From a virus, in UHGV virus genome UHGV-0070365: a DNA stretch of 39,408 nt; one strand, written 5' to 3'. A program made the translations under genes and the position numbers. Below, piece by piece: positions 7,358-39,358 of the stretch. The notes beneath the pieces are model-generated. The model searched no databases. It was not told the DNA's origin and saw only the letters and a list, made by a program, of their open reading frames with translations. The first letter of the stretch is position 1; each line of letters begins with the position of its first letter.

Positions 7358-8710
<1,353 letters not shown>

Positions 8711-17848: not shown

Positions 17849-17990
17849 TGTCCGCAGTAAACGCGCATCTCACGCGCATATTAACGAGAGCCTTTCAGTA
17901 AGCGAGCCTGAGAAATGCCGTTATAGGTGGCGACCTCTCTCGGGCGGCTTTTCTGTGAGACAGGCTCACTTTCTAAAAGGTAAAGACGCA

Positions 17991-18533
17991 ATGAACTACC
18001 CAACCGTTGTTAACGATATAGATTTCAGAGACCTAATTTTTGTAGCAAACAACGATCCGGTTACAGATTCTTTTATGGTGGCAAAAGCATTTGGAAAGCT
18101 GCCGAAGAACGTAGTTCGTGACATTGAGCGAACCATAGAAGCTTGCCCTCCTGAGTTTGATACAAAGCTCAACTTTGAGCTTTGCTATAAAAACAATGAG
18201 TTACAGAATGGTAAGCCGCAAAAATTCTACCGTCTCCGCAAGGATGGGTTGATGCTTTTGGTTATGTCCTACACCAAAAAAGAAGCAATGCGTGTCAAAA
18301 TTGCTTACATCAACGCATTCAACTGGATGTACGCCATGCTTCAGGTTGGTCATCGTCAATTTGAAGAAGAGAGAAATGCCGTAATGCTGGAGTACATGAA
18401 AGAGAAGGATGTTGCCAGCATGTCAGGTCGCCTGCTTAATCGCTGGGGAAAAATTAAGAAGCCACAGCTGCTGGCCAGAATTGAACGCCTTGAACAGCAC
18501 GGGCAAACCGTAATCCCCGGACTCACCAATTAA
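17991..18533 (+). CDS. Rha-family phage regulatory protein (about 180 aa)
   Basis: N-terminal …LIFVANNDPVTDSFMVAKAFGKLPKNVVRDIER… typical of Phage_pRha domain. Confidence 0.55.
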   Translation: MNYPTVVNDIDFRDLIFVANNDPVTDSFMVAKAFGKLPKNVVRDIERTIEACPPEFDTKLNFELCYKNNELQNGKPQKFYRLRKDGLMLLVMSYTKKEAMRVKIAYINAFNWMYAMLQVGHRQFEEERNAVMLEYMKEKDVASMSGRLLNRWGKIKKPQLLARIERLEQHGQTVIPGLTN

Positions 18534-29468: not shown

Positions 29469-30875
29469 ATGGCTACTTGGCAAGGAACAAACGGCGGATT
29501 GTTGGCTGGTATCGGCGGCGTCAACTCAAACGCTCCGAGCGTAAATGACATCGGCAATACGCTTCAGCTTATCAGGCAGAACAATGATATTGAGCGTTCA
29601 GGCGCTAACAATGTTGGGCTGACTGCTTTGCAAGGCCTTTCAGGTATTGCGGGGGTGTTTCAGCAGGAAAAGCAGGCTCAGCGGCAGAAAGAATTTCAGC
29701 AGGCATACGCTAATGCTTATGCGTCTGGTGATCGCGGTGCTTTGCGTCAGTTGGCTACTCAATATCCAGACCAGATTGAATCCGTTCGTAAAGGCATGGG
29801 ATTCATTGATGAAGACCAGCGCAATTCTATCGGCACCTTAGCGGCTGGCGCACGCCTTGCGGCCTCGTCTCCAGAAGCAATGCAATCATGGCTGCAAAAC
29901 AACGCCAATGAGCTGGCGCGCGTCGGTGTTGACCCTAATAACGTTGCTCAGATGTATCAGCAGAATCCTTCAGGATTTGGTGAGTTTGTTGATCACCTTG
30001 GGATGGCTGCTCTTGGTCCAATTGATTACTTCAATGTTCAGGACAAGATGGCTGGTCGTGAGATTGATCGCGGGAAACTTGCAGAGACAATCCGCAGCAA
30101 TCAGGCTGGAGAAGCACTTCAGGCGAGAGGGCAAAACCTTTCCTATCAGTCAGCAATGACTGGGCACAATATCGCAGCGCAACGCTTGGCTCTGGATCAG
30201 CAAGAGTTCGGGTTTAAGATGCAGCAAGCGCAGGAAAAGGCTCAGCAGTTGATTAGCGAAGCACCTAAGCTGTCAGTAAACATGGAAAAAGGCATCGAGA
30301 CGGCTGTAAACAATGCCACAGCATCATCAAACTCAGCCAATTCTATGAGTGCGCTTGCTCAACAGTTCAGAGCAGAAAAACCAACGACAGGTTTATTCGG
30401 TAACGCACAGAACATGTTCGCAAAACTTACCGGAAGCGATACGACATTGCGTGATTTGCGTATCCGCCAAAATGCCCTTGTTAACAGTCAGGTTCTTAAA
30501 TTCCTACCTCCCGGCCCCGCAACGGATAAAGACGTTGAGATCGTTCGGCAGGGTGCGCCAACTGACATGGATAACCCTGAGACGGTCGCAAGATGGCTTG
30601 ATGCGATGGCAAACCTTGAGCGACGAAATGCGCAGTTTAATGAGTTTAAAGCCGAGTGGATGAGCGCGAATGGCAATCCAGGACAATCGCGCAATGGCGG
30701 TCAGATATTGGGGTTGGATGTTAAAAAAGGTGAATCATTGGGGAGTGCCGTTAAGCGGTATATGTCAATGAATACTGACGCAGTGCCAGCACAAGATTCG
30801 ACACCTTCAGGAGAACCACGGAATCAGGTTGGATCATATACCTCAAAATCAGGCATTCAATTTACGGTGGAATGA
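29469..30875 (+). CDS. Ejection protein, P22 gp20-like (468 aa)
   Basis: Size and order match P22 gene 20. Confidence 0.7.
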
Positions 30876-32713
30876 TGAAAGTAACTGCAAACGGTAAGAC
30901 ATTTACCTTCCCTGATGGTACGAGCACGGAAGATATTGGGGCCGCCATTGATGAGTATTTTGCTGGTCAGGCTGTTCAGCAACAAACAGTTAATCAGGTC
31001 AATAATGAACCAGCACGGGAAGAACCATCATTGATGCAACAAGCTGGCGATTGGCTCACTGGTGGTCAAAGTGCAGGGCAAATTGCAGAACAGGCAGGTC
31101 GTGGTCTGGTAAACATACCATTTGACGTATTGCAGGGTGGTGCAAGTCTGATTAATGCAATCAGCCAGGGGCTTGGTGGCCCCAAGGTTTTGGATGATGT
31201 TTATCGTCCAGTAGACAGACCGACAGACCCTTATGCGCAAGCTGGAGAAACAATTGGCGGGTATTTAGTTCCAGGAGTTGGAACGGCAGGAAGCATGGCT
31301 ATTGGATCACTGGCAGAAGCCGCAAATCAGAAAGGCGATTTCGCACAAAATGCAGCTAAAAATGCCGGAGTTAACCTTGCCGCTCAGGGTGTTCTTTCCG
31401 CAGCAGCAAAGGGAATAGGGCGTGGAATAACGGCTATAAAAGGTGATATTGCGCCAGAAGTGGCGAAGAAAATTGCCACATCAGAATCGATGGGCGTGAC
31501 ACCAATGACATCTGATGTTATCCCGCCGAAAAATGCTTTCACTCGCGGACTTACTCAGGATGCCGAGGGGGCTTTGCTCGGGACAGGCTCAAAGAGAGCG
31601 GAGCAATATGCAACACGTAGTAAGCTGGTAAGCAATTATTTTGACCGTTTTGGTGAGTACAACCCTGATGATGTGGTGAAATCTCTGACCACCACGTTAA
31701 GGGGGCGGAAGGATGCCGCTGGCGCTGTTATCAATGACGTCACCAATAAAATGGGTAATGCCGCAGTTGATACCACAAATACCATGAATGCTCTGAATAC
31801 AGCGATCGCAAGACAGGAACGGCTTGGGACTTCAGCCAATCAAAGCCTGCTTACATCCTTGCGTAACCTACGTGAAGAATTAGCAAACCCTGCAACTGAT
31901 TTGGATGTTACGTTTGATCTCTTGCGTCAGCACAGAACAGCATTTAGATCTAATGTTCAGGGAGATGCTATGGTCTTCCCCAACCAGGCAAAAGCAGCTA
32001 CCAATATGGTAGAGAATGCAATGTCAAAAGACCTTCGTAACGCAGTTGCTAAAAACCTCGGTGCATCAGACGCAGCAAAATACCTTAAAGCAAATTCCGA
32101 TTATGCAAACGTTTATAATAAGGTGCTTAATAAAAACATTGCTAACAAGCTCAACAAGGCAAGCAGTGAAGCCAGTCCTGAACTTATAAATACCGTTGTA
32201 TTAAGCAGAAAACCATCTGACGTGAAACGAATCTGGAGCGCATTGGATGATAAAGGGAAAGATGCTATGCGTGCAGCTTACGTCAGCAAAATAGCGGAAA
32301 AGGCCGGTGACTCTCCAGCCAGGTTCATCACTGAAGTTAATAAGCTGAAATCTCAGTCGGGTGGTGAAATTTACAACACTATTTTTTCTGGAAAGCACAT
32401 GAAAGAGCTTGATGCTCTTCATGAAGTTCTACAGCAAACAGCAAGGTCAGACACCGCAAATGTAGTAACTCAGACGGGGCAATCACAAGCCAACAGGATA
32501 AGGACGATTGGCGCAACTGCGACTCTTGGAGTATCAATGGGGCTTGAGGCTGGCTTTGGTGCAATGATGCGTTTGTATGAGTCCAAAGCCGCAAGGAATA
32601 TGCTTCTTCGTCTAGCAAACACCAAGCCGGGAACACCAGCCTATGAAAGAGCGCTAAATAACGCTGCGAATGCCATCAGACCGCTGTTTGCTACTGAGGC
32701 AACACAGCAGTAA
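30872..32713 (+). CDS. Ejection protein, P22 gp16-like (613 aa)
   Basis: Size and order match P22 gene 16. Confidence 0.7.
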
Positions 32714-32737
32714 CGTATGGGAAATTGGATTCAATCG

Positions 32738-33127
32738 CTAACATTTTCTTTTTACTTTTCCAACAAAAGCTTTGGTTGAATCCATATTTCCATAACCGGA
32801 AATGGTTTTTGACATTAAAACTGTTCCAGTAGGATGTATTACCCATGAGTCGATAACGCGTTGAGTTTCGCCATTCGCGCCGATTCCTATGATGGAGTTT
32901 TTAGACAATGCTTTGTAAGCCATGCCGCCCGCATCTGTCCCAGAATATGTGATGCTGGCATCTTCACCGCTTGTCTTAATGATGAATGTTCCACTAAAAC
33001 CATCTTCTTCCGGATGGAAATTATTTCGTTCTGAATAGCTTATTCCGCGCATATCTCCAACGACCCAGCACTCTGCTGTAGCCCCAAAAGATATGAATAA
33101 GAACATAGCAGCAAGAAATTGCTTCAC
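32738..33127 (-). CDS. Secreted/periplasmic protein of unknown function (129 aa, GTG start), paralog of rex-position protein
   Basis: SD TAAGGAGGT upstream of GTG; signal peptide (M)KQFLAAMFLFISFGATA; mature N-terminus ECWVV like ECWIV of 7358-7762 product. Confidence 0.6.
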   Translation of the reverse strand: MKQFLAAMFLFISFGATAECWVVGDMRGISYSERNNFHPEEDGFSGTFIIKTSGEDASITYSGTDAGGMAYKALSKNSIIGIGANGETQRVIDSWVIHPTGTVLMSKTISGYGNMDSTKAFVGKVKRKC

Positions 33128-33191
33128 ACCAACCTCCTTAGTTTTGAGCAGAATACCAGATGATAATGTGTAGTTGGAGTAGCGCGGTTGT

Positions 33192-33283
33192 AATGCAAGC
33201 ATTTTGTTTTAGTTTTATGCTTGCTTGTATGTGTGTACAGTGTATATAATGCAAGCATACATCACAACAAAGGTGCTTGCATT
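33192..33283. promoter_or_regulatory. Divergent promoter region with four copies of TGCAAGCA/TGCTTGCA palindromic motif (33192-33203, 33217-33227, 33248-33259, 33273-33284) and TATAAT at 33245-33250
   Basis: Repeated imperfect 12-bp palindromes AATGC-NN-GCATT spaced about 24-32 bp. Confidence 0.5.
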
Positions 33284-34252
33284 ATGACTGAAAAGAAAAG
33301 TGGCGAAGGGAAAGCTAAGGGCGGGATCGCTCGCGCAAAGTCGCTGACTAAAGAGCAGCGTTCTGAAATAGCAAAGAAAGCAGCTGCTGCAAGATGGAAA
33401 AGTAAGATTCTCAGGGCAACTCATCGTGGTAACTTTTTAGATGATTTTGGCATTGATGCTGAATGTTATGTACTGGATGACGAGTCGAAAACTGTCGTTG
33501 TTACGAAAACTGGATTATCTCAGTTGCTAGGGATTGGTGAACATGCCAGGGATTTAGATCAACTGCTTGGCGCTCAGTATATGAGCAAATACCGAGATCT
33601 AGAATTGCAGCGAAAAATGGAAAATCCCTATAAATTTCAACTTACTTCGAAGTCTAAAACCGTTCATCAAGCGTTAGGTTATGACATTACAGCAATTGTT
33701 GATATTGGTAGGGCACTAATAGAAGCCAAAGATAATGACGATCTACCACAATCACGGTTAAAGGCAGCCGCCGCAGCACAGAGACTTATTAATGCCTCCG
33801 CTAAGGCGGGAATTAAGGGGGTTGCGTATGCGCTTGCTGGTTATCGTCCAGAAGTTCAGGCTGTCATTGACGAGTTCAAAGCGTTTGTTCGTGAAGAGGC
33901 TCGTCAATATGAAAAGGAATTTCCAGATGAGCTATACGAGGAGTGGTATCGACTGTACGGCCTGAATAGGCCAGAGAAAGGACGGCCTATTCGTTTTGGG
34001 CAGCTAACCAACATGCAGATATACACCCCGCTAGCAAAGAGTAAAGGTAAAATCCTTGAACAAATTAGAGCCAGCCGAGACGAGAACGGAAAACAATCTG
34101 ATAAGTTGCATCTGTTCCTTTCTGAAATTGGTGTCAAGGCTTTGCGTCAGCATATCGGTAAGCTTCTTGGTGTCGCAGCGATGAGTGAGACAAGAGAAGA
34201 ATACGAAAAAGGAATAGAAAAGGTTTTCGGAAGAATGAAACCAGAAATCTAA
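33284..34252 (+). CDS. Uncharacterised protein with basic putative DNA-binding N-terminus (322 aa)
   Basis: N-terminal KGGIARAKSLTKEQRSEIAKKAAAARWKS; no TM segments; lies in sieA/immI position. Confidence 0.55.
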   Translation: MTEKKSGEGKAKGGIARAKSLTKEQRSEIAKKAAAARWKSKILRATHRGNFLDDFGIDAECYVLDDESKTVVVTKTGLSQLLGIGEHARDLDQLLGAQYMSKYRDLELQRKMENPYKFQLTSKSKTVHQALGYDITAIVDIGRALIEAKDNDDLPQSRLKAAAAAQRLINASAKAGIKGVAYALAGYRPEVQAVIDEFKAFVREEARQYEKEFPDELYEEWYRLYGLNRPEKGRPIRFGQLTNMQIYTPLAKSKGKILEQIRASRDENGKQSDKLHLFLSEIGVKALRQHIGKLLGVAAMSETREEYEKGIEKVFGRMKPEI

Positions 34253-34260
34253 TTATGAAA

Positions 34261-34282
34261 CCCACCGTCAGGTGGGTTTTTT
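34261..34282. terminator. Bidirectional terminator hairpin (CCCACC-GTCA-GGTGGG then T6) shared by convergent genes
   Basis: Perfect 6-bp stem; mnt stop codon lies in loop. Confidence 0.7.
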
Positions 34283-34519
34283 GTACAAATCCTTCAGCGT
34301 ATCAAACACCATCTTCTTAACAAGTTCAGACTGCTCATCAGCGATGCGTTCCGCATCGTCTCGATAGCCTGAAATTTTGGATGGCTTTGATACAGCATCA
34401 GTCACTATCTGAACTAATTCTGAATTAAGAGAGCGGCCATTGGATTTGGCTCGCTGTTTTAGTTTTTCCTTTAATTCGTAAGGTAGCCGCAGATTAAATT
34501 GCGGGTCATCTCTTCCCAT
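34268..34519 (-). CDS. mnt: Mnt repressor, ribbon-helix-helix (83 aa)
   Basis: MGRDDPQFNLRLPYELKEKLKQRAKSNGRSLNSELVQIV...YRDDAERIADEQSELVKKMVFDTLKDLYKKPT, P22 Mnt-like. Confidence 0.85.
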   Translation of the reverse strand: MGRDDPQFNLRLPYELKEKLKQRAKSNGRSLNSELVQIVTDAVSKPSKISGYRDDAERIADEQSELVKKMVFDTLKDLYKKPT

Positions 34520-34582
34520 TCTTGATGCCTCACTTTTGTAAGTGGATCGGCATCATATGATCTACTGGTTATATCCACAATA

Positions 34583-34597
34583 AGACCACTGTGGTCT
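34583..34597. promoter_or_regulatory. Omnt: Mnt operator-like perfect palindrome AGACCAC-T-GTGGTCT
   Basis: 15-bp palindrome between mnt and tailspike start. Confidence 0.6.
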
Positions 34598-34654
34598 CAA
34601 TGACGCATTGCCGTAGCCATGCTGCGGTGATTCCTTGTATCTGGAGCAAATTAA

Positions 34655-36634
34655 ATGACAGACATTACAGCCAATGTGATCGTATCAATGCCATCGCAAC
34701 TCTTCACTATGGCGCGTTCTTTTAAAGCCGTAGCCAATGGCAAAATTTATATCGGAAAAATTGACACTGACCCGGTAAATCCTGAAAACCAGATTCAGGT
34801 TTATGTGGAGAACGAAGACGGTTCTCACGTCCCTGTTTCGCAACCAATCATCATTAACGCTGCTGGATATCCGGTATATAACGGACAGATTGCCAAGTTC
34901 GTAACTGTGCAAGGCCATTCTATGGCTGTTTATGATGCATACGGTGCTCAGCAGTTTTATTTTCCGAATGTTCTGAAGTACGATCCTGACAGATTGCGAC
35001 AGGATTTAGCGCTTCCAACAGGCGCTGAGCTTGTAGGCGTGCAACCACAAGGAAATCTTTCGCAAGTCATTCAGTTTGTATCTCCAGAGCAGTTTGGCGC
35101 CATCGGAGATGGTACGGTTCATCCATTATCTGAGCGTTATGCGACTCTTGCAGCAGCGCAGGCAGTATACCCATTCGTAACATCTCTGACGCAGACCATC
35201 GACTGGGCTGCATGCCAGTTGGCAGAAAACCTTAACAGGAAGGTTAGGCCCATTCATGTTGCCAAGTTTAAAAAATATCACCTTGGTGACAACTATCTCA
35301 AGTTGGGCCCATATTCTACATGGATTGCCCTACCGTTAAATGACTTCGTATGGGATACAGGATTTATCCGCAGCGTACCTACAGATTATTCCTCATACGC
35401 ATTTGGGCAGTTGTGCATTGTTAGAGTCGGTGACGCGTCAGAATTTACTGGTGATGGCGTTACCGGAAGCAATGTGCGAAATATTACCTTTAAGGGGTTT
35501 CAGCTTAGATGGGATGTGGCCAGACACACTCCTTCTAAGGGCGTTGGGACCATCTGCCTGCATATGAATAATGCCATGAAGATGAATCTTGATGTTTGCC
35601 TTTATGGCGGTGAGTTCGCTGCTTTCGGGTACTCATGCTGGGGCACTCAGGGTAGTATAAAAATAGACTCATGCCATAAGGGGATATATTGGGATGCCGT
35701 GAGTAAAACCCCGGAAAAATCCACAGAGGGAGGCAGCACAACGTCGCATAATATTGAATTACAAATCGACCATACGATTTTCCCTGTCTACCTTAGAAAT
35801 TGTAACTACGCTAAATTCCACGGCTGGTTCGAAGGAGCCTTGACGTCGATGGCTCACTATGATTACACAAACGAGACTGCAATGGGCATTACCCTTGATT
35901 CGTGTGACGGGGTAATTTTTGATATGGGAGTAGAGGCGTGGCAAGGAGCTTTACTGAATTGCATAGGTTCCGTTGAGGCTGAGTTTTCTTTTGCGATGCT
36001 TCCTAGTGAGATTCTACCATCGGGACTAGGTACGCAGGGGGTTGCGTATCGCGTAAGGTCGTTAATGTCTGCAACTGATGAGACGGCGATACCTAACGCT
36101 GATAGAAGTCTGTCTTATGTTAACGGATACAGCACCGTAACGATTAAGCACTGGCAGCCCGTTGTGAATCCATGGCCGACAGATGGAACAACGAAATATG
36201 TTACATCTGTTGACACAACAAGCAAAGTGACCTTCCAGGATTGCGGAGTAAACTTAGGCGGCGCTCCTGCACTCGGCGGCGGTGATGCTAGACTCAAGCT
36301 AGCACCAGCTAACTACGCTAATATAGAGGCTATAGGCGGGATGTACATAGAGCGCTATTTAAAGCCAAGCTCCTCATACGATTATGCAGGGAGATCTGTA
36401 TCTGTGCATAATTCGTGGCAGGGAGCTAAGATTGCTGCTGATGGCACTGTTACCATAACAGCTCCAGCAAACTTTAAAATAGTCGATTTTACGGCTATGG
36501 TAGGTGTCAGCACAAATGCTCAGCCATCCGGAGTTGGAATAAAATCCAGAAGCGATGCGTCTATAGTCCTACAAACTACAGCTAACGCGTCCTATGGTAT
36601 TAACTATAAATTGTGGGTTAAGCCAACATTGTAA
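34655..36634 (+). CDS. Tailspike protein: P22/Sf6-type N-terminal head-binding domain plus divergent receptor-binding domain (659 aa)
   Basis: N-terminus [59 protein letters not shown] matches P22 gp9 head-binding domain; remainder dissimilar. Confidence 0.85.
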
Positions 36635-36649
36635 AGGCCCTTACGGGCC

Positions 36650-38080
36650 TTATTTAAGCATTACATGAAAATGGTTGCCTGAGTGGATTATGAAGTAACG
36701 GCTATCCTTAAATACAGTAGTGTCGTTATTATTTTTCATTGATTCCATCTCTGCAAAAATTCCATAATGTTTCAGCATTATCATTCCTGACCAGTTATAC
36801 AAAGGCATTACCATCCACTTAAGGGAAGGGAATCTCTTAAATTCCATGTCAGTAGAGACGGCGGTAGATATCTGGCCAGAGATAAACACCTTTTTGCCAT
36901 CCAGTTTAGGTGGCAACGAAGATGCTATATCATAGAACACCTTATCTTCGAGCGAGCGCTGATGCTTACTTGCATTTCCATATGCAGACGAGTAAGACAA
37001 GGAGAACATTACAGGAATAATGCATGCGATAGTTGTTAGTCTTTTTGATGGCAACATTGATGCCAGATAGCCGATAAGCAGCATAAACCCCGGAACTCCC
37101 ATCATTACGCGAGGAGCAACCACAGTCTTATCTATAAATATAAATGGCCCAGCAATTGAGAACAGTGTCACTGCAATGCCCGAAGAAAACACAGCAAAAC
37201 CAATAATTTTTGATGTTAAAGAAAGCTCAGACTTTGCCACTCTGAAAGACAGAATTATCAAGCCAACAGTCGCAACTACAATAATCAGTACCCAAGCCAT
37301 GTAAAGCGAGTCATTCATGAGGCTTGATGCGATATTCCAGAATCTTTCAAAGTTGTAAAGCAGGCTTTTAGCCGGATCATCAGCTTTTAATACAAGATCT
37401 GAGTGAACATTCTTCGACAAGAAGAATGGGGTCACACCCTTCATGTAGATTATAATCCCAATAATTGCGCTGGCCGCTCTTTCGGCAGACATTCGCAATG
37501 CATCTGTTCCGCTTCCCCTACTGTAAAGTACGTAAGCTATTTCTATGGCGCACAAAGATAGGAACACATTTATTGTTGCTTGATAGAGACTCAAGGCAAG
37601 CACAAGGCATACAGCCCCAAATAGCACCCTAAACGCCAACTTCCATGATGCTGCCATTTTAGAGTAAGGTAAAACGGCAAGGAAAACTCCAAGCATCATG
37701 GGGAGGGAGTCAAAGTGATAAGAAAGATTTTGAAGGAAGAAAGGGCTTAATGAAAATAAAGAAAAAACTAATCCTGAAGCAATGCCGCGACTGATTGCAA
37801 ACCTGCAATAAAGAATGACTGACGAAGCACCAAGGAATGTGCCGGCAAGTATCAGTGATAATGGGAAAGAATCGACAACAAATCCAGATCCAAACCCAAG
37901 TGACATGACAACAACATCAGATAAAGGTCGGCCAAGCACGCCCCAATACGCTTCACCATTCGCAGCCCTAAGTATATCATCCTGATATAGAACGCCTGAA
38001 AGCAGGATTGGCAACACAAAGAGTGCTGTAATCAAGGAAATTACCCAACACCCGCTATCAAATTTATTCAACTTCAACAT
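36650..38080 (-). CDS. Serotype-specific O-antigen glucosyltransferase (GtrC-type, polytopic membrane protein, 476 aa)
   Basis: Multi-TM protein directly downstream of gtrB in a gtrA-gtrB-gtrX operon. Confidence 0.7.
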
Positions 38081-38999
38081 TTTTATTCCTTTGTTTTAGA
38101 ATAAATCTCGGGCGCTGCTTGGACTCAACATATATCCTGCCAATGTACTCACCAAGAACGCCAATGCCAATCAATTGAACCCCGCCAAGGAACAGAATAG
38201 AGACAAGCAGGGATGGATATCCACGTACAGCATTGCCGAAGGCCAGTGTGTCGATAATCATCCAAGCACCGTACAGAAACGCCACTCCAGCTACGAACAG
38301 GCCAATGTAAGTCCACATGCGCAACGGGAAAGTAGAGAAGCTTGTGATTCCCTCAAGTGCCAGGTTCCACAGTTTCCATCCATTAAATTTAGTACTGCCT
38401 GCCACTCGTTCTGCGCGTGCATACTCGACAACATCAGTGCGGCCGCCAACCCAACTCAGCACACCTTTCATAAAAAGGTTGCGCTCTGGCATAAGCTTAA
38501 TGTTTTCGACAACTTCACGGCTCATTAACCGGAAATCGCCGACATTCTCCTCGATCTTTGGGTTGCTTATTTTGTTGTGCAATTTATAAAACCACTCTGC
38601 CGTTTTGCGTTTCAGTCGTCCGTCAGTTGAGCGATCAGTTCGCTTAGCCAGCACCATATCAGAGCCTGCCTGCCACTTTTCGATGAGGTGGGGAATAACC
38701 TCAATCGGATCTTGCAGGTCAACATCAATTGGAATTACAGCATCTCCGGTTGCATGGTCTAGCCCTGCAAACAATGCTGGTTCTTTACCAAAGTTTCGTG
38801 TAAATGACAGCGGAACAACCAGCGGGTCTGAAACAGCCAGAGCATTAATAATTGACTCCGTAGCGTCTTTGCTTCCGTCATTTATGAAAACAATTTCCAC
38901 TTCATATGGCTTCAACTCTTTGAACTCACGTACCGTTTTATAAAAAATTGGTATCGCTTCTTCTTCATTGAAGACAGGAACTACAAGAGATATCTTCAT
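38064..38999 (-). CDS. gtrB: Bactoprenol glucosyltransferase GtrB (311 aa)
   Basis: GT2 family motifs (VVPVFNEEE, DxD), C-terminal TM helices. Confidence 0.9.
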
Positions 39000-39358
39000 T
39001 TCGCATCCCTAAAGACAATGAACTTTGAATAGACGAAACCGCACACCAGGCTGATGGCGGAGAAGGTGACGAGAGTGACAATTGGAGGAAGTGAACATCT
39101 ATCAGCAGCCCATCCAACAGTTGCACTCAGTGTTCCCATGAACCCGACATATAACATGTAGCGCATCGTTGTAGTTGATGCTTTGAATGTGAATTTTGCA
39201 TTCGCGAAGAAGCTAAAACTCACAGCCACAACAAAACCTGCGAAGTTTGCCAGAGCCTGATTGGTATGCGCGGCATAGATACATACACCAAAAACCACCC
39301 AGTGTATAAGGGTGTTCAGCACGCCAATAGAGGTGTACTTTGCAAATAGTTTTAACAT
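38996..39358 (-). CDS. gtrA: GtrA flippase (120 aa)
   Basis: [59 protein letters not shown]...; 4-TM GtrA family. Confidence 0.9.

Follow-up and report, generated by a model that had tools for sequence, protein, structure and literature searches.

In phage P22 the immI region runs mnt, Pant/Omnt, arc, ant and then gene 9, an order that the initial annotation of this locus had taken as its reference and that agrees with the annotated P22 record. A reduced layout, with mnt as the only gene of this set, is already known and has been published for ST64T, ST104 and L. Phages L, ST64T, ST104, ST160 and SE1 carry such a mnt-only "ant moron" (Villafane et al. 2008; Zaworski et al. 2020), and the ST64T/L type has been described as an ant moron holding only mnt, together with unrelated genes of unknown function (PMC2629481). 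The layout itself is therefore of little discovery value, having been described from ST64T and ST104 onwards and discussed explicitly for L.

We analysed a viral sequence of 39.4 kb (the window, meaning this whole stretch of DNA), which covers nearly the whole of a P22-like prophage of E. coli. The features that we located around mnt are collected in Table 1. The initial annotation had reported a clear Mnt homolog, a perfect 15-bp palindrome and a tailspike gene as the next gene to the right, and all of these are present; mnt and the tailspike gene face each other across a gap of 135 bp.

Table 1. Features between the sieA-equivalent position and the end of the tailspike gene, with positions in the window.
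Feature	Position	Strand	Description
Small phrog_2651 protein gene	32738-33202	minus	N-terminal signal-like segment; position where P22 has sieA
P63C-domain gene	33281-34252	plus	Pfam P63C, E=7.6e-14; phrog_2384, E=1.7e-104
Two-way intrinsic terminator hairpin	34257-34283	no strand	Stem of the type GAAACCCACC-GTCA-GGTGGGTTTC, with T run
mnt	34268-34519	minus	ORF of 83 aa; ribbon-helix-helix repressor with Mnt C-terminal tetramerisation domain
mnt Shine-Dalgarno GAGG	34528-34531	minus	8 nt before ATG, read from the sequence
Decayed Pant	34547-34575	plus	TCGGCA (34547-34552) and TATATC (34570-34575); 17-bp spacer
Pmnt -10 hexamer TATGAT	34552-34557	minus	Distance to operator centre equals that of P22 Pmnt TATCAT
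Pmnt -35 hexamer TTGTGG	34575-34580	minus	Ends 2 bp from operator; geometry as for P22 TTGAGA
Predicted Mnt operator	34583-34597	no strand	Perfect 15-bp palindrome AGACCACTGTGGTCT, AGACCAC-T-GTGGTCT; centre 34590
Joint	34598-34610	no strand	13 bp, CAATGACGCATTG, in place of ~1.3 kb of P22 (blastn of P22 immI)
Tailspike leader	34611-34654	plus	Shared with P22; 80% identity to the gene 9 upstream region
Tailspike gene	34655-36634	plus	659 aa; P22-type head-binding domain at aa 1-113; Pfam Head_binding, E=4.4e-67

In phages L, Gally and ST160, too, the tailspike gene comes straight after mnt. ST64T and SE1 also align over this stretch, and mnt and the tailspike gene are the only genes annotated in the aligned part. 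An alignment of the mnt-tailspike intergenic regions of the window, Gally, ST160 and L has a mean column identity of 90%, and the operator is followed by the same joint in each. The mnt-only arrangement is spread across Salmonella and E. coli phages, with Mnt identities of 70-100%; the window-type mnt and operator occur in 112 of 5426 complete E. coli genomes, and E. coli strain EC2 is 100% identical to the window over positions 34200-34760. The window shares its operator arms, a retained Pmnt and a decayed Pant with the L/ST160/Gally type. It differs in its left-hand passengers (the P63C and phrog_2651 genes, compared with orf62 in L and two other hypothetical genes in Gally), in the centre base of the operator (T, compared with C in L and ST160 and A in Gally) and in its tailspike receptor-binding domain, which is unlike that of the L/ST64T/Gally group. 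A 613-aa ORF (30872-32713) lies where L, ST160 and Gally have the gene 16 injection protein, an assignment by position only. Judged by its place between gene 16 and the tailspike gene, by mnt as its sole immI gene and by the homologous intergenic region, the locus fits the mnt-only ant moron.

The product of mnt is 75.9% identical to P22 Mnt and does not differ from the Mnt annotated in Escherichia phage Gally (100% identity). It has both of the domains that define the Mnt family, an Arc-type N-terminus (residues 3-50, Pfam Arc, PF03869, E=2.8e-22) and a coiled-coil C-terminus (residues 53-80, Pfam Repressor_Mnt, PF11423, E=2.2e-18). PDB entry 1mnt aligns over 75 residues (E=2.8e-34) and PDB entry 1qey, the C-terminal coiled-coil tetramerisation domain, also matches (E=3.1e-12). 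The N-terminal recognition strand reads GRDDPQFNLRLP, with Gln6 in place of the His6 of P22. Residues Arg2, His6, Asn8 and Arg10 of Mnt reportedly contact DNA, in work attributed to Knight and Sauer and to Youderian et al. Mnt homologs frequently bear the database name "partition protein ATPase", a label that the present analysis corrects.

The palindrome has the same placement relative to the Pmnt hexamers as the Mnt operator of P22. Palindromes with seven-base arms around a single centre base are no rarity over the 39 kb of the window (2 seen, about 5.2 expected from Markov simulations), but the chance expectation of one inside the 135-bp intergenic gap is about 0.018. We regard it as more than a chance feature because its position fits the P22 operator geometry and because it is kept in related phages. 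Since our first IMG/VR sample had been fetched by operator pattern, which made arm conservation circular there, we repeated the conservation analysis on 65 loci retrieved by Mnt protein similarity. Across these loci the operator keeps its arms but not its centre base: the core arms have 0.5 deviating haplotypes per position, compared with a mean of 2.1 at other intergenic positions, and the centre varies more than any other position, all four bases occurring there. The P22 operator, AGGTCCAC-G-GTGGACCT, differs from that of the window symmetrically at positions +/-5 and +/-7. Scanning species-representative genomes for CAATAAGACCACNGTGGTCT gave just two chance matches, in unrelated MAGs. By homology with P22, a Mnt tetramer, in which the C-terminal coiled coil holds two ribbon-helix-helix dimers together, would bind the half-sites AGACCAC and GTGGTCT, and we infer that the palindrome is the operator of the window Mnt.

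Homology to P22 spans mnt, Pmnt and the operator, skips about 1.3 kb and picks up again 44 bp ahead of the tailspike start. The missing stretch corresponds to arc, sar, ant and the ant terminator, which P22 has together with a strong Pant and the window does not; the two regions are alike in the terminator that overlaps the mnt 3' end and in the tailspike leader. No arc or ant homolog lies elsewhere in the window. The window was searched by tblastn with the Arc and Ant proteins of P22 and a further 12 Arc or antirepressor proteins taken from related modules. The Arc proteins of P22, N7 and Kapi1 gave only the expected cross-match to mnt, and P22 Ant and 11 other antirepressor-type proteins gave no match. 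A Rha query matched only positions 17961-18530, and P22 carries a Rha homolog at the same position. The sar antisense RNA, encoded in P22 between arc and ant, is also absent, the arc-ant segment having been replaced by 13 bp and the gap having no RNA family match; over positions 32600-35000, Rfam gave no RNA family and only sub-threshold terminator-like matches. The skipped homology supports the reading that the locus is the remnant of a deletion that removed arc, sar and ant. The initial annotation had offered such a remnant as one of two readings. The deletion stands, but the word remnant is incomplete, given the purifying selection on mnt and on the operator arms described below.

The other reading was that Mnt controls early or lysogenic transcription of the tailspike directly, from a rightward promoter at or upstream of the operator that drives gene 9 and is off in lysogens. 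The operator lies just 58 bp upstream of the tailspike start, its arms are kept in ant-less loci, which a purely trans role would not require, and the P22 ant moron is believed to affect the amount of tailspike, with Mnt and Arc described as proteins that "may have a role" (PMC2629481). The sequence of the gap argues against it. We scored promoters with a matrix built from consensus frequencies; a promoter with a low score can still fire. The leftward Pmnt scored 9.34, above the 90th percentile of the background (7.75). The hexamers that sit exactly where P22 Pant has TTGACA and TATATT scored 2.89 and have no T at -7, whereas P22 Pant itself scored 15.51 and the Pant of seven ant-containing loci with identical operator arms scored 11.3-13.3. 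The best rightward score in the 135-bp gap was 4.93, which is at the level of the background median (4.57), and a consensus promoter scan of the gap found nothing. The -10 equivalent appears unconstrained in ant-less loci, where it reads TATATC, TGTATC, TGCATC, TACATC or TTCATC and never has T at position 6, whereas the ant-containing loci with the same operator retain TTGACA and a good -10. By these scores the rightward Pant of the window has decayed to background level, and the window lacks the strong Pant, overlapped by the Mnt operator at its start site, that marks a P22-type immI. A Mnt-controlled tailspike promoter is thus not supported, and we consider direct control of the tailspike by Mnt unlikely. 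The decay of Pant suggests that the tailspike is transcribed as in P22, with the late operon as the most likely source.

Decay of Pant would also be expected if mnt and the palindrome were an inert relic, left by a recent deletion and free of selection, and mnt transcripts were not detected in lysogens of the related phage Kapi1 (PMC12922286). The substitution patterns point the other way. Between the window type and the ST160 type, two ant-less lineages with the same joint, mnt has a dN/dS of 0.07-0.10 at a dS of about 0.5, a value to which recombination with alleles shaped in ant-containing phages may have contributed. Of the segregating sites of mnt within the window-type clade, 9 are synonymous and 6 nonsynonymous (ratio 0.19, Fisher p=0.0013). 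These estimates indicate that mnt is under purifying selection, with a dN/dS of about 0.07-0.2. The ORF is full length beside the operator in 60/60 loci (59 related loci and the window), and the Pmnt hexamers and operator arms are kept while the centre base and adjacent positions vary. This suggests that the cassette is functional rather than decaying, and it bears on the question raised in the phage L paper of whether the orphan mnt is a relic or functional, where the comparative data favour a functional gene. Together with the spread of the arrangement across phages of two host genera, these patterns make an inert relic quite improbable. Selection on the Mnt protein would also be maintained if Mnt had been re-targeted to regulate another prophage gene or a host gene through further operator copies, and the phage L paper notes that mnt "could have acquired another function". 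The palindrome is the sole site within three mismatches of AGACCACNGTGGTCT in the 39.4-kb window, and we judge such re-targeting highly improbable.

Operator type covaries with Mnt residue 6. All 65 of the Gln6 loci have an operator of the type GACCAC-N-GTGGTC (a few with one arm mismatch), and 11 of the 15 His6 loci have a P22-type operator. The predicted Mnt-operator pair of the window, with Gln6 and the changes at +/-5 and +/-7, is thus in a specificity class distinct from that of P22. In IMG/VR, seven ant-containing loci (L011, L051, L059, L109, L117, L125 and L127) have the operator AGACCAC-G-GTGGTCT. Their arms, Mnt strand (RDDPQFNLR) and Pmnt/Pant geometry are identical to those of the window; unlike the window, they have a complete arc-ant with a consensus TTGACA Pant, and their Mnt proteins are longer (about 100-112 aa, counted from the start at MARDDP), with a C-terminal half unrelated to that of the window. 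In L051, the sole module compared, the genes lie among the tail genes of an SPN3UB-like long-tailed lambdoid phage and not beside a tailspike gene. The metagenome that yielded L059 (3300045988) was also the source of several window-type loci. A megablast search of E. coli genomes with an ant-containing module that has the window-type operator found nothing, and a more sensitive search recovered only relatives of 65-69%, of which the one examined uses TAGTAC-G-GTGCTA. The sampled E. coli ant-containing prophages use other operators, either P22-type or TAGTAC-G-GTGCTA, so that none of these phages of the same host matches the window, and the operator of SPN3UB, which represents the known phages closest to L051, is an unrelated direct repeat.

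The explanation that we favour, and hold to be probable, is that the locus is a mnt-only ant moron with a decayed Pant and a late-operon tailspike, whose cassette is kept by selection, likely for silencing in trans. An ancestral Lederbergvirus immI (mnt, Pmnt/Pant/Omnt, arc, sar, ant) would have lost arc, sar and ant, leaving a self-contained cassette of mnt, the leftward Pmnt and, immediately upstream of its -35 hexamer, the 15-bp palindromic operator. Antiterminated polymerase from the late operon would transcribe the tailspike through the terminator, and antisense through mnt, as in P22. Mnt made by the prophage may silence the antirepressor promoters of phages that enter the cell or already reside in it, where these promoters have the same operator, and silencing of incoming antirepressor genes is plausible. 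A role in trans needs no operator in cis, so the conservation of the operator requires the assumption that it serves mnt autoregulation. As phages with the same operator and a real antirepressor have been identified, a trans-immunity role is directly testable. More tentatively, and with considerable doubt, the orphan Mnt could be a selected anti-antirepressor immunity gene, with specificity classes (His6 as in P22, Gln6 as in the window, and Sf101) that act like immunity groups. If so, it would protect the prophage from induction by foreign antirepressors, its own Ant having been discarded.

The terminator hairpin to the left of the cassette overlaps the mnt stop codon and would end both the plus-strand P63C transcript and the minus-strand mnt transcript. 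Its predicted RNA fold is -16.2 kcal/mol (z=-3.5), it has a sub-threshold Rfam match resembling the sroH terminator, and phage L has terminators annotated on both strands at the equivalent site. Our built-in consensus scan missed it, probably because the stem absorbs part of the T run. The P63C-domain gene is a passenger in the variable region flanked by gene 16 and the tailspike gene; its longest ORF begins at 33221, but translation more likely starts at the ATG at 33281. It was considered as a relocated antirepressor gene and rejected, having no similarity to 12 antirepressor types. That identity is also disfavoured by phage vB_EcoP-611R6, which carries the same DNA (98.4% identical) in a match that stops before mnt. 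The papers retrieved by a literature search on the P63C domain all used the term in unrelated senses. Mnt, the P63C protein and the two phrog_2651 proteins matched none of the defence systems in PADLOC. Within the small phrog_2651 gene, positions 33125-33158 match the 5' end of P22 sieA over 34 bp (94%). On the other side of the cassette, the tailspike leader holds most of a predicted hairpin (34607-34631) and a Shine-Dalgarno sequence, GGAG (34643-34646). In the CUS-3 record, the part that aligns with positions 34611-34900 of the window contains an annotated "boundary sequence" (bsq1).

The DNA spans almost all of a P22-like prophage (Lederbergvirus), and the chromosome of E. coli strain EC2 matches it with 100% identity over bases 34200-34760. 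At the sequence level the assignment of mnt is solid, as its product matches the Pfam Arc (E=2.8e-22) and Repressor_Mnt (E=2.2e-18) profiles and PDB entry 1mnt (E=2.8e-34), and shares 75.9% identity with P22 Mnt and 100% with the Mnt annotated in phage Gally. The initial annotation had reported a clear Mnt homolog and a perfect 15-bp palindrome with the tailspike as the next rightward gene and no arc or ant, and all of these observations were confirmed, with the palindrome in the mnt-tailspike gap. P22 Arc and Ant gave no tblastn hit in the window beyond the expected cross-match of Arc to mnt, and the only other exception among the tblastn searches was a Rha homolog. We rejected the latter as a relocated ant because P22 possesses ant as well as a rha gene in this same position. 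Further Arc and antirepressor queries from Kapi1, N7, UPF_BP1, VSe13, SPN3UB, Midgardsormr38, two E. coli prophages and one IMG/VR locus found no arc or ant elsewhere in the window.

Features of the mnt-tailspike region and related genes in the window
Feature	Coordinates	Strand	Remark
Second phrog_2651 protein	7358-7834	-	signal-like N-terminal segment
Rha homolog	17961-18530
613-aa ORF, gene 16 (injection protein) position	30872-32713	+	placed by position
Small phrog_2651 protein	32738-33202	-	signal-like N-terminal segment
P63C-domain protein	33221/33281-34252	+
mnt	34268-34519	-
mnt-tailspike gap			135 bp
10-bp perfect palindrome ATCATATGAT	34552-34561
Predicted operator, palindrome AGACCACTGTGGTCT	34583-34597
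Segment replacing P22 arc-ant	34598-34610		13 bp
Hairpin	34607-34631		11-bp stem
Tailspike	34655-36634	+	Pfam Head_binding E=4.4e-67
Three ORFs, position of gtrC, gtrB, gtrA in P22 and L	36650-39358	-

P22 homology ends past the operator and restarts at 34611, so that 13 bp stand in place of the ~1.3-kb P22 segment containing arc, sar and ant together with the ant terminator. In the annotated P22 immI region, the Mnt operator is AGGTCCAC-G-GTGGACCT, Pant is TTGACA-17-TATATT and Pmnt, on the opposite strand, is TTGAGA-17-TATCAT. The window hexamers TTGTGG and TATGAT (Pmnt) and TCGGCA and TATATC (Pant) lie at exactly the P22 spacings from the operator centre. Promoters were scored with a simple sigma-70 matrix built from consensus frequencies (background 90th percentile 7.75, 99th 10.2). 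Pmnt scores 9.34 compared with 13.1 in P22, the Pant remnant scores 2.89 compared with 15.5, and the best rightward candidate across the whole gap (4.93) equals the background median. Among related loci the Pmnt hexamers are retained, and the Pant -10 equivalent drifts (TATATC, TGTATC, TGCATC, TACATC, TTCATC), with T never found at the last position.

The palindrome pattern has no other site with three or fewer mismatches in the whole window. Over 39 kb, a palindrome of this length is unremarkable (2 observed, ~5 expected); the chance expectation within the gap itself is only ~0.018. Our first IMG/VR sample was collected with the operator pattern itself, which makes its arm conservation circular, and operator conservation was counted in a second sample collected by Mnt protein similarity (65 loci in 27 haplotypes with the window-type glutamine at Mnt residue 6, Gln6). 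Here, 0.5 haplotypes deviate per position in the 6+6 core arm positions, against a mean of 2.1 elsewhere in the intergenic region, and variation peaks at the centre base, where A, C, G and T all occur. Conserved arms around a free centre are to be expected if two dimers read a symmetric operator.

All 65 Gln6 loci (RDDPQFNLR) have a GACCAC-N-GTGGTC-type operator, a few with one arm mismatch, and 11 of the 15 loci with the P22-type histidine (RDDPHFNFR) have the P22 operator. The operators of the two classes differ symmetrically at +/-5 and +/-7, and the window Mnt-operator pair would form a distinct specificity class. Residue 6 was reportedly identified as the main specificity determinant of Mnt in work by Sauer and Susskind. 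A third class, in Sf101 and VSe13, combines QFHLR with TACC-N5-GGTA and is likewise ant-less.

The mnt gene itself is under purifying constraint: dN/dS between window-type and ST160-type mnt, both from ant-less loci with the same joint, is 0.07-0.10 (dS ~0.5, dN ~0.04). Within the window-type clade, 9 of 56 synonymous and 6 of 193 nonsynonymous sites segregate (ratio 0.19, Fisher p=0.0013). The open reading frame is full-length in all 60 mnt genes extracted adjoining an operator (59 related loci and the window).

Two explanations had been offered for this layout, Mnt control of tailspike transcription and a remnant of an ant deletion. Control of the tailspike is unsupported by the sequence, given the decayed Pant and rightward scores no better than the background median. 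The tailspike transcript would instead be supplied by the late operon, whose readthrough to the tailspike has been described for P22 and L; antiterminated polymerase would cross the hairpin terminator at 34257-34283 and continue antisense through mnt. A deletion remnant is right as far as the replaced arc-ant segment goes and incomplete in that mnt, Pmnt and the operator are maintained. In the lysogen, Pmnt would produce Mnt, a tetramer of which would bind the palindrome, and without Pant this binding could affect only Pmnt itself or polymerases in transit. The maintenance of all three elements (protein, promoter and operator) means that the cassette must bring some benefit. We tentatively suggest, as the simplest possible payoff, that Mnt represses matching antirepressor promoters on other phages in trans. 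Within a complete mnt-arc-ant module, seven IMG/VR loci have operator arms of the window type together with an identical recognition strand; Pant in these loci includes a consensus TTGACA and scores 11.3-13.3. One of them (L059) shares a metagenome with several window-type loci; in the one compared (L051), the module is set amid tail genes, and the phage has ~82% similarity to S107 and SPN3UB of Salmonella. The sampled ant-containing E. coli prophages carry P22-type or TAGTAC-G-GTGCTA operators, not the window type.

The arrangement of mnt beside the tailspike has already been described (the variable region was named the "ant moron" by Villafane et al. 2008; see also Zaworski et al.), and its interest is therefore low. 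By BLAST, the junction is common to L, ST64T, ST160, SE1, SPN9CC, Gally and vB_EcoP-720R6, with 90% identity in the intergenic region across four sequences (the window, Gally, ST160 and L). Of 5426 complete E. coli genomes, 112 carry window-type mnt and operator.

Several further features of the leader were observed. In the window and related loci (L138-L202), the operator centre base, 34590, is the single most variable site of the whole leader, all four bases occurring among close relatives; this exceeds what mere lack of constraint predicts and may mean that the middle of the palindrome is a mutational hot spot. The 10-bp palindrome overlaps the Pmnt -10, where P22 has the left half of its Arc operator. 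The window, L and ST160 types share this palindrome and the Gally type lacks it; it may be an Oarc relic or may simply result from the -10 sequence. The hairpin that immediately precedes the tailspike ribosome-binding site also occurs in P22, where another copy of the motif, which has diverged, directly follows the ant terminator. In the CUS-3 record, the corresponding stretch includes a 'boundary sequence' annotation (bsq1). Hairpin variants compared by eye revealed no clear compensatory changes.

PHROGs (phrog_795) and RefSeq phage records (NC_004348, NC_014900, NC_011802, NC_017985, NC_027398) label these 83-aa ribbon-helix-helix Mnt homologs 'partition protein ATPase', which cannot be right given the protein size and fold.

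The P63C-domain gene (phrog_2384) lies in the variable region and converges with mnt on a common terminator. It is 98.4% identical to vB_EcoP-611R6 DNA, in a match that stops short of mnt, and its product matches nothing in PADLOC and resembles none of 12 antirepressor types. The two phrog_2651 paralogues (27% identical, E=3e-11) may serve as surface or exclusion factors expressed from the prophage. One occupies the sieA site of P22, where a 34-bp stretch (33125-33158) has 94% identity to the sieA 5' end, and the other adjoins the prophage repressor gene.

Related prophages show other rearrangements. In E. coli TUM10008 (L010, 3407-3690), the original tailspike start is left as a 21-codon stub (MTDIINRN...), separated by ~270 bp of AT-rich DNA from a new start (MPDITPNV...), which looks like the scar of a tailspike module replacement. 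Judged by spacing, the operator-to-tailspike distance is similar in seven other loci (L081, L083, L093, L129, L017, L047 and L086). The prophage of E. coli MFDS1019527 (L135, 2501-3279) represents another decay route of the same module, with two tandem Mnt-like genes, arc, and a KilA-N antirepressor-like gene cut by IS2.
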